From the NCBI GenBank assembly GCA_044353855.1, contig JBILBF010000001.1:54462-118461 (forward strand): a DNA stretch of 64,000 bases. The letters are read 5' to 3'. The notes beneath the pieces are model-generated. The model searched no databases. It worked only from the letters and a program-made list of their open reading frames with translations, and was not told the DNA's origin. The stretch is from Bacteroidia bacterium (GTDB taxonomy: Bacteria; Bacteroidota; Bacteroidia; UKL13-3). Position 1 is the stretch's first letter; each line of letters begins with the position of its first letter. A program made the translations under genes and the position numbers. Shown in pieces: positions 328 to 54,469 of this stretch.

Positions 328-358
328 AAGCTAGTTTTTAAAAGTTTTCTGTAAGTTT

Positions 359-533
359 AAGCCGCAGATTACATTTTATTGTCATTTGTTTTGTTGCCCC
401 TGATAAGCACAGAATCAGTATCGCGAAAATCAGAGAAAATCCTTACTGAAATAGTCTTAACATAAATCAGTGCTAATCTGTGGCATTTATCCCGAAGACT
501 AAAAATAAATTTAATTAGAGTAATCTGTGGCTA
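359..533. repeat. Copy A of a dispersed intergenic element: AGCCGCAGATT ... AGTCTTAA..AATC(A/T)GTGCTAATCTGTGGCA, plus an extra TAATCTGTGGCTA half-site at 521-533
   Basis: Left end GCCGCAGATT is at 361-370 and right end AGTCTTAACATAAATCAGTGCTAATCTGTGGCA at 453-485. The ends are an imperfect inverted repeat (GCCGCAGATT versus AATCTGTGGC). The same architecture recurs at 28399-28533. Confidence 0.6.
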
Positions 534-707
534 AATCTTTTTTCCTAAGAGCAACTTACTATAATTTTTAGGCAGTTACAAAAATTATTATGGGGCTAAT
601 CATAGCATAAAAACTGCCCTATAAAAATCATAAAAAATATGAAGGTATCATTCTCAAATGCCGAATACTTAGATTATTTTCGCGCCACTTTAACAATCTC
701 CCACAAC

Positions 708-2231
708 ATGCAACAACCTAAAAAAATAGCCAATGCCCTTATTTCTGTATTTTACAAAGACGGTTTGGAGCCCCTTGCCAAAGCTTTAAACCAACTTGGT
801 GTGGCTATTTATTCAACAGGAGGAACGCAAGAGTTTATTGAAAAACTAGGCATAAAAGTAAACGCAGTGGAAGCGTTAACGGGTTATCCAAGTATATTAG
901 GTGGTCGTGTAAAAACGTTACATCCAAAAGTATTTGGGGGTATTTTGGCAAGGCGCTCAAACGAAAAAGACCAGCAAGAAGTAAAAGAATTTGAGATTCC
1001 ATTTTTTGATTTGGTAGTAGTAGATTTATACCCTTTTGAAGAAACCGTAAAATCAACTTCGGAAGAAGCTACCATCATTGAAAAAATAGATATTGGTGGT
1101 GTTTCGTTGATTCGTGCTGCTGCCAAAAATTTTAACGATGTGGTTATTGTTTGCGATAAACATGATTGCCCTATAATTGCCGAAACGTTGTTAGCACAAC
1201 AGGGGCAAACATCCATCGAACAACGCAGAAGTTTTGCTACCAAAGCATTCCATACTACTTCGCATTATGATGGCATGATTTTCAACTATTTCGACAAAGA
1301 AACCACTACTGCCTTTAAAGCAAGTGTTGAACCTGCAAAAGTTTTACGTTATGGCGAAAACCCTCATCAAAAGGGATTATTTTACGGCAACTTAGAACAA
1401 TTGTTTACCCAAAAACATGGCAAAGAATTGTCTTATAATAATTTATTGGATATAGATGCTGCTTTAAATTTAATGAGCGATTTTAGTGAGCCAACAGTTG
1501 CCATTATCAAACATAATAACCCTTGTGGCGTTGCCACTCGAACCACTATTCTTCAAGCATGGAACGATGCATTAGCAGGTGATCCTGTTTCGGCATTTGG
1601 AGGTGTAATTGTTGCCAACAAACCTATTGACGAAGCTACAGCTACCGAGATTGATAAAATTTTTATGGAAGTATTAATTGCCCCTGGATATGAGGGCAAT
1701 GCGCTACATATTTTGCAATCAAAAAAGAACCGCGTGTTATTGCAGTTAAATGGAAACTTACCTAACGGCAAACAATACCGCAGTTTGTTAAATGGAGTGG
1801 TTGAACAAGATAAAAACGAGGTGGTATTAACCAAAGAAAATTTAACCTTGGTAACTACAACTGCTGCAAACGAAAATACCTTAAACGATATGTTGTTTGC
1901 TGATAAAATTGTTAAACATACCAAATCAAACACCATTGTGTTTGCCAAAAACGGACAATTATTAGGCATTGGGTGCGGACAAACTTCTCGTGTTGATGCT
2001 TTGAAACAAGCCATAGCCAAAGCACAAGCTTTTGAATTTGATTTGAACGGAGCAGTAATGAGCAGCGATGCTTTTTTCCCTTTCCCTGATTGTGTGGAGA
2101 TAGCAGATAAAGCAGGCATTAAAAGTGTTATCCAACCTGGTGGTTCTATTAAAGATGATGCAAGTATTACCTATTGCAACAACCATGGAATGGCCATGTA
2201 TTTTACAGGAACAAGGCATTTTAAACATTAG
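708..2231 (+). CDS. purH: Bifunctional AICAR transformylase / IMP cyclohydrolase
   Basis: Strong PurH similarity throughout (MQQ..K.ALISV.DK, GGTQEFIEKLGI, GRVKTLHPKVFGGIL, C-terminal YFTGTRHFKH). The ORF track starts at 639, but the MQQPKK start at 708 matches the canonical PurH N-terminus. Confidence 0.9.
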   Translation: MQQPKKIANALISVFYKDGLEPLAKALNQLGVAIYSTGGTQEFIEKLGIKVNAVEALTGYPSILGGRVKTLHPKVFGGILARRSNEKDQQEVKEFEIPFFDLVVVDLYPFEETVKSTSEEATIIEKIDIGGVSLIRAAAKNFNDVVIVCDKHDCPIIAETLLAQQGQTSIEQRRSFATKAFHTTSHYDGMIFNYFDKETTTAFKASVEPAKVLRYGENPHQKGLFYGNLEQLFTQKHGKELSYNNLLDIDAALNLMSDFSEPTVAIIKHNNPCGVATRTTILQAWNDALAGDPVSAFGGVIVANKPIDEATATEIDKIFMEVLIAPGYEGNALHILQSKKNRVLLQLNGNLPNGKQYRSLLNGVVEQDKNEVVLTKENLTLVTTTAANENTLNDMLFADKIVKHTKSNTIVFAKNGQLLGIGCGQTSRVDALKQAIAKAQAFEFDLNGAVMSSDAFFPFPDCVEIADKAGIKSVIQPGGSIKDDASITYCNNHGMAMYFTGTRHFKH

Positions 2232-28385: not shown

Positions 28386-28398
28386 TTCCTACTTTTTT

Positions 28399-28533
28399 AG
28401 CCGCAGATTGCAACTAATTTTTATCTAAGTCGTGTGAGAGTATAGCCACAAATTAACACAAAAAACTATTTTAGCCTTCAGTGCCCATTTCACTGAATTC
28501 AAGTCTTAAATTAATCTGTGCTAATCTGTGGCA
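28399..28533. repeat. Copy B of the dispersed intergenic element (AGCCGCAGATT ... AGTCTTAAATTAATCTGTGCTAATCTGTGGCA)
   Basis: Left end is at 28399-28409 and right end at 28502-28533. AATCTGTG half-sites repeat in tandem with 11-bp period. Same end architecture as copy A at 359-485. Confidence 0.6.
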
Positions 28534-28548
28534 AATTATATTTAGGTT

Positions 28549-29154
28549 TTACAATGCTGCTTCGAATCTGCGGCTTACTTCGTCCCAGTTTACTATATTC
28601 CAAAATGCAGTACAATAATCTGGTCTACGGTTTTGGTAATGTAAATAATAAGCATGTTCCCAAACATCCAAACCTAAAATAGGTGTTCCATTACAATCCG
28701 TAACTACATCCATCAACGGATTATCTTGATTGGGTGTAGAGCAAATTTTTAGTTTACCATTCTCCACACATAACCAAGCCCAACCTGAACCAAAACGAGT
28801 TGCAGCAGCTTTGTTAAAATCTTCTTTTAGTTTATCCATTCCAACTAAGTCGGCAGTAATAGCAGCTTCAAGTTTTGCAGATGGTTTGCTGGGTGTACCA
28901 CTCAATATAGTCCAAAATAAAGAATGGTTAAAATGACCACCACCATTGTTGCGAACAGCAGCGGGATACTTGCTTATATTTTTGCAAATATCTTCAATCG
29001 ATACATTTTCAGCATCCGTTCCTGCAATAGCATTGTTTAAATTGGTAACATATGCGTTGTGGTGTTTGCTGTGGTGAATTTCCATTGTGCGAGCATCAAT
29101 ATGTGGCTCAAGCGCAGTGTATGCGTAGGGTAATTTAGGTAGTTCGAATGCCAT
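28549..29154 (-). CDS. sodA: Superoxide dismutase (Fe/Mn family)
   Basis: [25 protein letters not shown] and the DVWEHAYY metal-ligand motifs. Confidence 0.95.
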
Positions 29155-53279: not shown

Positions 53280-53696
53280 ATGCCACGCATACTAGCCATC
53301 GATTATGGAACCAAACGAGTTGGATTAGCAGTTACTGATCCTCTTAAATTGATTGCAAATACGCTTACAACTGTTCATGCAAAAGATGCTATTCAATACC
53401 TTAAAGATTATTTAGCCAAAGAGGAAGTTGACTGTTTTGTGGTTGGGAAACCGATGCGTTTGGATGGCACCGACTCTCAATCTGCGGTTCATGTTGAAAA
53501 ATTTATACATTTGCTGGGTAAAAATTTTCCAACAATTCCGGTGAATAGAGTTGATGAACGATTTACATCGGCTATTGCCAAAAGAAGCATGTTAGAAATG
53601 GGGTTAAAAAAGAAAGACCGTGCTAATAAGTCGACTGTTGACCAAATAAGTGCGGTGTTAATTTTGCAAACTTTTTTGCAGATGCAGGGGAATTAA
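53280..53696 (+). CDS. ruvX: Putative pre-16S rRNA nuclease / Holliday junction resolvase-like protein
   Basis: ILAIDYGTKRVGLAVTD N-terminus (YqgF/RuvX). Confidence 0.9.
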   Translation: MPRILAIDYGTKRVGLAVTDPLKLIANTLTTVHAKDAIQYLKDYLAKEEVDCFVVGKPMRLDGTDSQSAVHVEKFIHLLGKNFPTIPVNRVDERFTSAIAKRSMLEMGLKKKDRANKSTVDQISAVLILQTFLQMQGN

Positions 53697-53762: not shown

Positions 53763-53893
53763 GGGAATACAAAGTATATATTTTTGTAGTAACCCGTTGC
53801 GATGTTAACTAAAGATAAATAAATATAATCCGTGTAATCAGCGGCTAAAAAATAATTGAAAGACTTAAGTGCGTTTCATTTCGTATTTTTGAC

Positions 53894-53914: not shown

Positions 53915-54469
53915 ATGATATTACCCATTGTAGCATACGGAGATACCGTATTGAGAAAAAAAGGAACATTGCTTAGCAAAGATCATGATGGCTTAGAAAT
54001 GCTTATTGAAAGCATGTGGGAAACCATGTATGAATCAAATGGAGTGGGATTGGCTGCTCCTCAAATTGGCAAATCCCTTAATTTATTTGTAGTTGATGCA
54101 ACTCCTATGGAAGACCCTAACTACACTGAATTTAAAAAAGTATTTATCAATGCCGAAATCATAGAAGAGTTTGGTGATAAATGGGAATACGAAGAAGGCT
54201 GTTTATCCATTCCGCATATTAGAGATAATGTTAAGAGATATTCGGATATAGTGGTTCGGTATATGGATGAAAACTTTGTGGAACATGAAGAAGAATTTAA
54301 CGGCATGCCGGCCCGTGTAATCCAACATGAATATGACCATATTAATGGCGTTTTATTTGTAGATCACCTCTCGGAACTTAGAAAACGATTACTTAAAAAT
54401 AAACTCATTAACATATCAAAAGGAGGAGTGGATGTAGATTACCGCATGCGATTTCCAGCTATTCGATAA
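53915..54469 (+). CDS. def: Peptide deformylase
   Basis: GVGLAAPQIG, EGCLSIP and QHEYDHINGVLF (HExxH) motifs. Confidence 0.9.
   Translation: MILPIVAYGDTVLRKKGTLLSKDHDGLEMLIESMWETMYESNGVGLAAPQIGKSLNLFVVDATPMEDPNYTEFKKVFINAEIIEEFGDKWEYEEGCLSIPHIRDNVKRYSDIVVRYMDENFVEHEEEFNGMPARVIQHEYDHINGVLFVDHLSELRKRLLKNKLINISKGGVDVDYRMRFPAIR

Follow-up and report, generated by a model that had tools for sequence, protein, structure and literature searches.

Palindromic intergenic repeats beside purH and sod in a Bacteroidia genome belong to a dispersed family associated with GxxExxY nuclease-like genes

The stretch of DNA analysed here, referred to as the window, comprises 64,000 nucleotides (64 kb) of a Bacteroidia bacterium genome (GenBank assembly GCA_044353855.1, contig JBILBF010000001.1, positions 54,462 to 118,461 of the forward strand). 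Two of its intergenic regions carry copies of a palindromic repeat: copy A, in the spacer between a minus-strand serine hydrolase gene and purH, and copy B, in the spacer between sod and a minus-strand gene for a 100-amino-acid (aa) protein. A first-pass annotation had proposed that the two regions share one architecture with inverted-repeat ends, and our data confirm this. The motif AATCTGYGGC or its complement occurs at six sites in the window (361, 475, 522, 28400, 28523 and 28565), all of them confined to the copy A and copy B regions, compared to 0.21 expected from dinucleotide shuffles, and none of 100 shuffles reached six. Similarly, GCCRCNGATT occurs seven times in the window (0.48 expected). 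The 8-mer AATCTGTG by itself is not significant in the window (4 versus 2.46 expected). The features, including a third and solitary member of the family, are as follows:

353..539, no strand: whole composite element of copy A, an outer inverted pair around a core hairpin; a 20-nt repeat (353-372 versus 520-539) is 85% complementary.
361..370, minus strand: outer-left terminal unit of copy A, GCCGCAGATT, an exact motif match.
396..415, minus strand: degenerate left arm of the core hairpin of copy A, GCCCCTGATAAGCACAGAAT, 15/20 identical to the reverse complement of 465-484 and paired with 465-484 in the minimum-free-energy fold.
465..484, plus strand: right arm of copy A, two tandem units AATCAGTG-CT-AATCTGTGGC with a 10-nt period; the 20-mer query of the genome scan.
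522..531, plus strand: outer-right terminal unit of copy A, AATCTGTGGC, a motif match.
28386..28548, no strand: inserted DNA of copy B, lying between the sod stop codon and the ATG of the 100-aa gene, from spacer comparison with relatives.
28399..28409, minus strand: outer-left unit of copy B, AGCCGCAGATT; among the relatives introduced below, L130 has GATTTGCGGC and L146 is without it.
28445..28460, minus strand: left arm of the core hairpin of copy B, GCCACAAATTAACACA, 16 nt, 88% complementary to 28517-28532.
28513..28532, plus strand: right arm of copy B, two tandem units AATCTGTG-CT-AATCTGTGGC with a 10-nt period.
28565..28575, plus strand: extra outer site AATCTGCGGCT, an 11/11 complement of 28399-28409 formed by the last sod codons (S-R-R-F); pre-existing coding sequence, outside the insert.
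53827..53845, plus strand: third member, a solo array AATCCGTGTAATCAGCGGC (AATCCGTG-T-AATCAGCGGC) followed by TAAAAAA, found with a looser motif search; intergenic, between open reading frames (ORFs) 53280..53696 and 53915..54469.

The terminal unit GCCRCWGATT is inverted in both copies (361-370 versus 475-484 and 522-531 in copy A; 28400-28409 versus 28523-28532 in copy B). Because the core of each copy contains a degenerate inverted copy of its right-end array, we describe each copy as a core hairpin of 88-89 nt (396-484 in A, 28445-28532 in B) nested in an outer inverted pair, GCCGCAGATT ... AATCTGYGGC. The first-pass annotation had regarded this interval as a diverged core, and it is not featureless, since it holds the inverted array at 396-415 in A and 28445-28460 in B. 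On the two sides of the core hairpin, the gap to the outer unit is 25 and 37 nt in copy A, compared to 35 and 32 nt for copy B. The right ends, described before as similar over about 30 bp, do align over approximately 32 nt, and approximately 43 nt in total are common to both copies. Other particulars needed correction. The tandem units repeat with a start-to-start period of 10 nt in both copies (465/475 and 28513/28523) rather than 11 nt, and the terminal inverted repeats, which are 10-20 nt long in the window, extend to 20 nt in copy A. An extra half-site had been assigned to copy A and is present there (522-531), although it is not unique to that copy since copy B has 28565-28575. Lastly, 33 nt separate the GCCGCAGATT end from the ATG of the minus-strand gene in copy A, within the 25-45 bp given for both copies, but only 14 nt do so in copy B.

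These repeats are not restricted to the window. We scanned 185,579 species genomes (596 Gb) with the 20-mer AATCWGTGCTAATCTGYGGC and found more than 118 matching loci, compared to approximately 4 expected from 596 Gb by our own arithmetic. Among the matches listed, isolate genomes include Herpetosiphon, Flavobacterium, Cyclobacterium, and Sediminibacterium, and metagenome-assembled genomes (MAGs) are labelled as Planctomycetota, Verrucomicrobiota, Acidobacteriota, Ignavibacteriae, Syntrophomonadaceae, Omnitrophica, and one Methanosarcinales. MAG labels may be wrong, and the isolates on their own place AATCWGTGCTAATCTGYGGC in two phyla. The 20-mer had no match in 2.9 million viral contigs, which does not support carriage by phages. 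No Rfam family was matched at gathering score in the whole window or in 18 other motif loci, and only chance-level matches appeared at E-values up to 10. Together with our literature searches, this agrees with the first-pass statement that no Bacteroidetes element with this sequence has been described.

The family is built of short arrays of the 8-mer CACAGATT, with the arrays set in inverted orientation. The tip unit reads GCCRCWGATT and is often flanked by runs of T and of A on opposite sides. The recurring design is a T-run, GCCACAGATT(N0-2)CACAGATT, a loop, AATCTGTG(N0-2)AATCTGTGGC and an A-run. Unit spacing across the family is 8, 9 or 10 nt; therefore, helical phasing is not conserved. 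Among the matches listed, 48 of 122 have the inverted partner GCCRCWGATT upstream of the 20-mer and 6 of 122 have it downstream, and a looser criterion for the partner (at least 12/16 matches, within 250 nt) gives 30 upstream versus 3 downstream. Partner distances in this set are bimodal, with 26 at less than 60 nt and 6 at 300-500 nt, and right tips are followed by an A-rich hexamer in 76 of the 122. The listed arrays are nearly always intergenic and show no bias with respect to the orientation of the flanking genes (21, 22, 17 and 29 in the four orientation classes). Arrays of other short units, including AATCCGTG, AATTCGTG and CTTCGTG, are often found nearby. Two neighbours of individual family members were also observed. 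At L032 (705-773), a Flavo-1 RNA (RF01705, 57 bits) lies approximately 150 nt from a CACAGATT hairpin, with similar downstream sequence in L021, L070, and L098. In Herpetosiphon giganteus (L085, 3728-4050), CRISPR-like direct repeats GTTCATCTCACTGCCCCGCCGTGGAGGGGTTTAAAAC adjoin a string of short-unit arrays.

The two distance classes of inverted pairs differ in content. Pairs less than 60 nt apart are gene-less hairpins, while pairs with long spacing (300-520 nt) always enclose one small ORF, in either orientation, which encodes a GxxExxY protein of approximately 125 aa (TIGR04256, E-value 8e-43; PF13366 PDDEXK_3, E-value 2e-41). When all ORFs within 1.5 kb of the motif were clustered, GxxExxY was the sole enriched neighbour (9 loci, median distance 47 nt, among the listed matches). 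Since these loci had been picked for the motif, we also ran the reverse test, in which genes were chosen first and their flanks inspected after. A protein search seeded with the protein of L105 returned 693 homologues at E-values of 1e-10 or below, and all four GxxExxY homologues that were picked blind to their flanks are bracketed by GCCACAGATT(N0-2)CACAGATT ... AATCTGTG(N0-2)AATCTGTGGC, with units spaced 8-10 nt apart. Eight distant GxxExxY genes on plasmids (L149-L156; 31-44% identity) mostly have flanking arrays built of different short units: Treponema has CACGGATT, Bacteroides finegoldii CACAGAGGA, Bernardetia CACAGAGA, Gemmatirosa CGCGGAT, and Sphingomonas CGCGAAG. Two of these distant cases (Fusobacteria and Prevotella) have direct instead of inverted arrays, and ACAAATNG units were also seen in this plasmid set. 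Since distant genes have arrays of other units, flanking arrays are a property of the whole GxxExxY gene family.

The window copies are connected to these cassettes by sequence. The two right arms (465-484 and 28513-28532) match the 20-mer that adjoins GxxExxY genes in L002, L048, L083, L090, L100, L105, and L139, and approximately 26 nt of TGCCACAGATTAGCACAGATTAATTT are common to the window copies and the end of the L139 cassette. Both forms can be found in one genome, as in the MAG GCA_943369665.1, which contains an orthologue of copy B (L130), a complete cassette in the nuoE/nuoF spacer and a gene-less hairpin (both L105), and a solo array (L030). In the loci examined, GxxExxY is a lone gene between housekeeping genes (nuoE/nuoF, nuoF/nuoG, fabD/fabG, radA) and is not beside cas genes. 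Cassettes inside nuo operons were seen in two phyla (nuoE/nuoF spacer in Bacteroidota, nuoF/nuoG spacer in Herpetosiphon) and lie at the following positions:

L105, 86-487.
L138/L139, 1501-1824.
L002, 5507-5938.
L100, 6785-7264.

A stop codon in L139 (1501-1900) shortens the GxxExxY copy to 107 aa, with the C-terminal LGMIVNFG...KRIVL still readable just downstream, and therefore the gene is decaying there inside intact arrays.

We next consider the protein itself. Its AlphaFold model has a pLDDT of 90, and the best Foldseek match of the model is the Cas4 protein SSO0001 (4ic1; E-value 2e-5, 26% identity), followed by lambda exonuclease and RecE; a weak Cas4 profile match was also found. Because a confident model matches Cas4, lambda exonuclease and RecE, the GxxExxY protein is plausibly an active DNA nuclease, as judged from its predicted fold. 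Unlike Cas4, the modelled protein consists of the nuclease core only, with the N- and C-terminal parts of Cas4 absent, and its gene is not found beside cas genes. PF13366 has been listed as of 'unknown' function, with transfers between divisions (Steczkiewicz et al. 2012). GxxExxY proteins group by phylum, with approximately 40% identity between phyla, while the 8-mer is identical in Bacteroidota and Chloroflexota.

We found that copies A and B are inserted DNA, gained at intergenic sites in this lineage. The 100-aa gene beside copy B is genuine and conserved, with 19 homologues down to 53% identity, and it had no match in Pfam, NCBIfam or PADLOC. It was considered as a possible part of the element and rejected, since it is kept beside sod and glmS with or without the element. 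The spacer between sod and this gene compares across relatives as follows:

L131 and L132: 100-aa protein 75% identical, sod spacer 10 nt, empty.
L133: 100-aa protein 56% identical, sod spacer 10 nt, empty.
Window: 100-aa protein 100% identical, sod spacer 163 nt, CACAGATT hairpin.
L146: 100-aa protein 84% identical, sod spacer 145 nt, CACAGATT hairpin.
L130: 100-aa protein 79% identical, sod spacer 152 nt, CACAGATT hairpin.
L147: 100-aa protein 74% identical, sod spacer 98 nt, different repeat.
L148: 100-aa protein 53% identical, sod spacer 238 nt, different repeat.

The pattern is most simply explained by a single insertion before the window, L146 and L130 diverged, into a spacer that acts as a hot spot for small repeats. 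The 98-nt spacer of L147 (803-900) contains a 19-nt direct repeat, TGTCAGGCTGAGTTTATCG, and the 238-nt spacer of L148 (663-900) contains a different palindrome and AATTCGTG/CTTCGTG units. Directly beside the 100-aa gene, two contigs of the window's own population (L121 and L122, 3517-5302) show a structural variant, in which an ORF of 92 aa and a gene with RHS repeats stand in place of glmS. Copy A is likewise absent from L134, where purH is 83% identical and the divergent hydrolase/purH layout is the same; the spacer there is 153 nt versus 380 nt in the window, and the purH-proximal spacer sequence, downstream of the element, can still be aligned between the two. The empty sites that the first-pass annotation had asked for are thus L131, L132, and L133 for copy B and L134 for copy A. 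The start of purH is most likely 708 and not the first ATG at 639 (window 639-710), as ATGCAACAACC and the next codons are kept in L134 and match from residue 1.

The sod side of copy B shows an additional feature. The sequence at 28565-28575 predates the insertion, since element-free L133 and L148 read AGTCGCAGATT and L147 reads AGCCGCAGATAC at this position, and the inserted DNA (28399-28409) is a perfect 11-nt complement of these pre-existing sod codons for S-R-R-F. By our own estimate, the chance of a match of at least 9/10 within 50 nt on either side is approximately 0.006. Copy A has the same five-part layout as copy B at similar distances, and L146 has lost the inserted partner of the 28565-28575 unit. 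Complementarity at the sod end may reflect choice of the target by complementarity, later selection for the outer stem, or coincidence.

Considering these data together, we favour, at somewhat better than even confidence, the explanation that the window copies, along with the solo array at 53827-53845, are non-autonomous, gene-less relatives of the GxxExxY nuclease cassette that resemble REPINs (hairpins formed by paired repetitive extragenic palindromic, or REP, sequences) and miniature inverted-repeat transposable elements (MITEs). Their place in a widespread family of palindromic repeats between genes, the link of this family to GxxExxY genes and the insertion of copies A and B are themselves shown by the data. 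We infer that the nuclease recognises and mobilises the arrays. In this mechanism, the repeated 8-mers would act as sequence-specific protein recognition sites, and the recognising protein would most probably be the GxxExxY nuclease expressed from a gene-carrying copy elsewhere in the genome. The nuclease may cut at or near the array tips, after which the segment would be copied or moved. In that case the gene-less copies would be non-autonomous and travel as passengers, in the same relation to the cassette as REPINs to REP-associated tyrosine transposases (RAYTs) or MITEs to insertion sequences, and an inserted element would be carried passively, transcribed with its neighbours and able to fold into a long nested hairpin. 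Recognition by sequence is favoured over base-pairing because the 8-mer is the same in Bacteroidota and Chloroflexota despite approximately 40% protein identity and because linker lengths differ between the two arms of one hairpin. Arm variants at the two positions left free by the search pattern, a small sample, include 1 compensated and 7 uncompensated cases and likewise favour recognition of the units by sequence over selection for base-pairing.

Several observations weigh against this explanation. No target-site duplication is visible when filled and empty sites are aligned, with spacers too diverged to place the junctions. Beyond the terminal 26 nt or so, the interiors of copies A and B cannot be aligned with cassette sequences. 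About half of the arrays in other genomes, among the matches listed, are solo with no recognisable partner arm, as is the array at 53827-53845, which has no recognisable inverted partner; solo arrays are unusual if an element requires both of its ends. Several array sites are kept across species (e.g., L008/L009/L116), which implies slow turnover and makes a host function possible. We know of no demonstrated activity for any PD-(D/E)XK protein of the GxxExxY family. Because of these five points our confidence is moderate. In addition, the 64-kb window contains no GxxExxY-like ORF (best tblastn E-value 0.87), so that its copies are the gene-less form, and a sequence search found no solved structure for GxxExxY relatives. 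A GxxExxY paralogue with 68% identity carries CACGAATT arrays, and a clean co-variation of protein clade and unit at short range was rejected on account of this paralogue and of the clustering of proteins by phylum; units do differ at long range. Derivation of A and B from a cassette by internal deletion was also considered and is unsupported, since the terminal 26 nt or so alone align.

We asked whether the gene-less hairpins might instead be targets for homing. Here the GxxExxY nuclease would cut a palindromic array and repair from a gene-bearing copy would place the gene in the loop, with the hairpins spreading or persisting by other means. The gene is always found between the two arms and can point either way, which is what entry into a symmetric site would predict; L144 has an intact gene-less hairpin directly beside a cassette; and the interiors of gene-less copies are unrelated to those of cassettes. 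However, homing leaves the arrival of gene-less hairpins at new sites, such as the sod spacer, unexplained, and we found no allelic pair of one hairpin with and without the gene. We regard it as rather unlikely.

A function of the repeat at the RNA level in the host, as a site of processing by RNase III, a stabiliser of the mRNA or an insulator separating sod from the 100-aa gene, seems improbable to a similar degree. Such a role would be akin to that of REP sequences or of the stems flanking ORF-bearing 23S rRNA intervening sequences. On the sense strand of sod and the 100-aa gene, copy B folds at -57.6 kcal/mol (z -5.5), the 2 mismatches between its arms become G-U pairs in the minus-strand RNA, and an outer stem of 11 bp pairs the 3' end of sod with the bases immediately ahead of the following ATG; the conservation of some sites across species also fits a role in the RNA. 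Against it, copy A folds better on the opposite strand (z -4.1 on the plus strand and -2.7 on the minus strand), the arrays have no orientation bias to genes, the arm variants are mostly uncompensated, no Rfam family matches, and relatives do without the element. The repeat was also considered as an intrinsic terminator and rejected, since on either strand a T-run comes before the hairpin and an A-run after it, with no U-run following the hairpin on the transcribed strand. A terminator or promoter in general was set aside for the missing U-run and the missing gene-orientation bias.

The first-pass annotation had offered a two-site operator with helically phased half-sites for a dimeric regulator; such a transcription factor would control purH and the genes for the hydrolase and the 100-aa protein. 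The tandem units in the window do have a 10-nt period and lie near start codons. Yet the same 20-mer occurs at more than 118 loci of many phyla, beside unrelated genes in all four orientation classes, the unit spacing varies from 8 to 10 nt, and the elements are inserted DNA absent from the orthologous promoters of relatives that keep the same genes; the conserved purH promoter-proximal sequence lies downstream of the element. We consider an operator very improbable and reject it. Least probable of all is an invertible promoter flipped by a site-specific recombinase, which the inverted repeats around approximately 90-170 bp beside gene starts might suggest, since 10 independent assemblies of the population have an identical 221-nt copy B region, always in one orientation (a comparison at the assembly level only), no recombinase gene is adjacent to either copy, and family members enclose a nuclease gene and not a promoter.

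Among known systems, REPINs with their RAYTs are the closest analogue in logic to the repeats and cassettes described here. Both comprise short intergenic palindromes, inverted hairpin doublets and multi-unit clusters without visible target-site duplication, as well as a single-copy nuclease-type gene flanked by inverted repeats and outnumbered by gene-less copies (Bertels and Rainey 2011, PMC3116915; Di Nocera et al. 2013, PMC3733652). REP sequences are recognised by a GTAG or CGTC tetranucleotide at the head of the palindrome (PMC3733652), whereas the tips here read GCCRCWGATT and have no such head. In contrast to RAYTs, which are Y1 HUH transposases, the protein encoded between the repeats here is a PD-(D/E)XK member of the GxxExxY family (PF13366/TIGR04256). 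Each arm is made of repeated 8-mers joined by linkers of 0-2 nt, and the 8-mer is common across phyla while REPs are lineage-specific.

Bacterial MITEs (e.g., Correia/NEMIS, RUP and Nezha) are approximately 90-190 bp long, have terminal inverted repeats, lie between genes, are polymorphic for presence and absence and are co-transcribed, and the window repeats are alike in these respects. The earlier suggestion of a MITE-like element is essentially borne out, by the dispersed family, the inverted ends, the empty orthologous sites and the gene-carrying versions, one of them in a close relative. In detail the repeats depart from a classic MITE: no target-site duplication is visible (across the family, flanks extend the palindrome instead of forming direct repeats), and the PD-(D/E)XK partner is not a known transposase. 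The boundaries of the element also differ from those of the first-pass annotation. Unlike those of MITEs, the ends are repeated short units and not one long inverted repeat, and no insertion sequence with a known transposase shares them; we found no transposase-encoding parent with the same ends, as the gene-bearing relatives encode the PF13366 nuclease only. Tn7 provides a precedent both for a nuclease of restriction-enzyme fold that cuts transposon ends (TnsA) and, in Tn7-type ends, for several repeated protein-binding units in inverted orientation. However, Tn7 needs TnsB, TnsC and target selectors, while the cassette has a single gene for approximately 125 aa, with no sequence relationship to Tn7 and a product of no shown activity. 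ORF-bearing intervening sequences in 23S rRNA (Leptospira, Coxiella) similarly place a small ORF between inverted repeats that form a long stem in the transcript. These lie in rRNA helices, are excised by RNase III and usually encode a four-helix-bundle protein, unlike the window copies, which are intergenic and gene-less. The 18-nt double unit was not found in print in the literature searched, which omits most subscription journals, so that an earlier description is possible. Where GxxExxY or PF13366 is named in that literature flanking repeats are not mentioned, and the 8-mer alone gave unrelated primer matches.

Our data indicate that the family consists of palindromic non-autonomous repeats tied to a single nuclease gene and that the window copies are ordinary gene-less members of it. 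For the window this has a practical consequence: these stretches are inserted repeat DNA and are neither promoters nor operators for purH or sod. The family further accounts for a class of repeats between genes, and for spurious small ORFs running over them, which are met constantly in the annotation of Bacteroidota and Chloroflexota genomes. More tentatively, and with less than even confidence, GxxExxY genes and short-unit arrays might together form an unrecognised and very widespread class of selfish cassettes, in which a minimal Cas4-like nuclease would recognise units of 7-10 nt and mobilise, or home into, gene-bearing cassettes and a far larger population of gene-less hairpins, with the CACAGATT specificity kept across phyla. 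GxxExxY proteins are very common and their function is unknown; their link to the arrays gives a testable hypothesis, namely that they may be nucleases with a defined 8-mer recognition sequence that drive a REPIN-like population of repeats.

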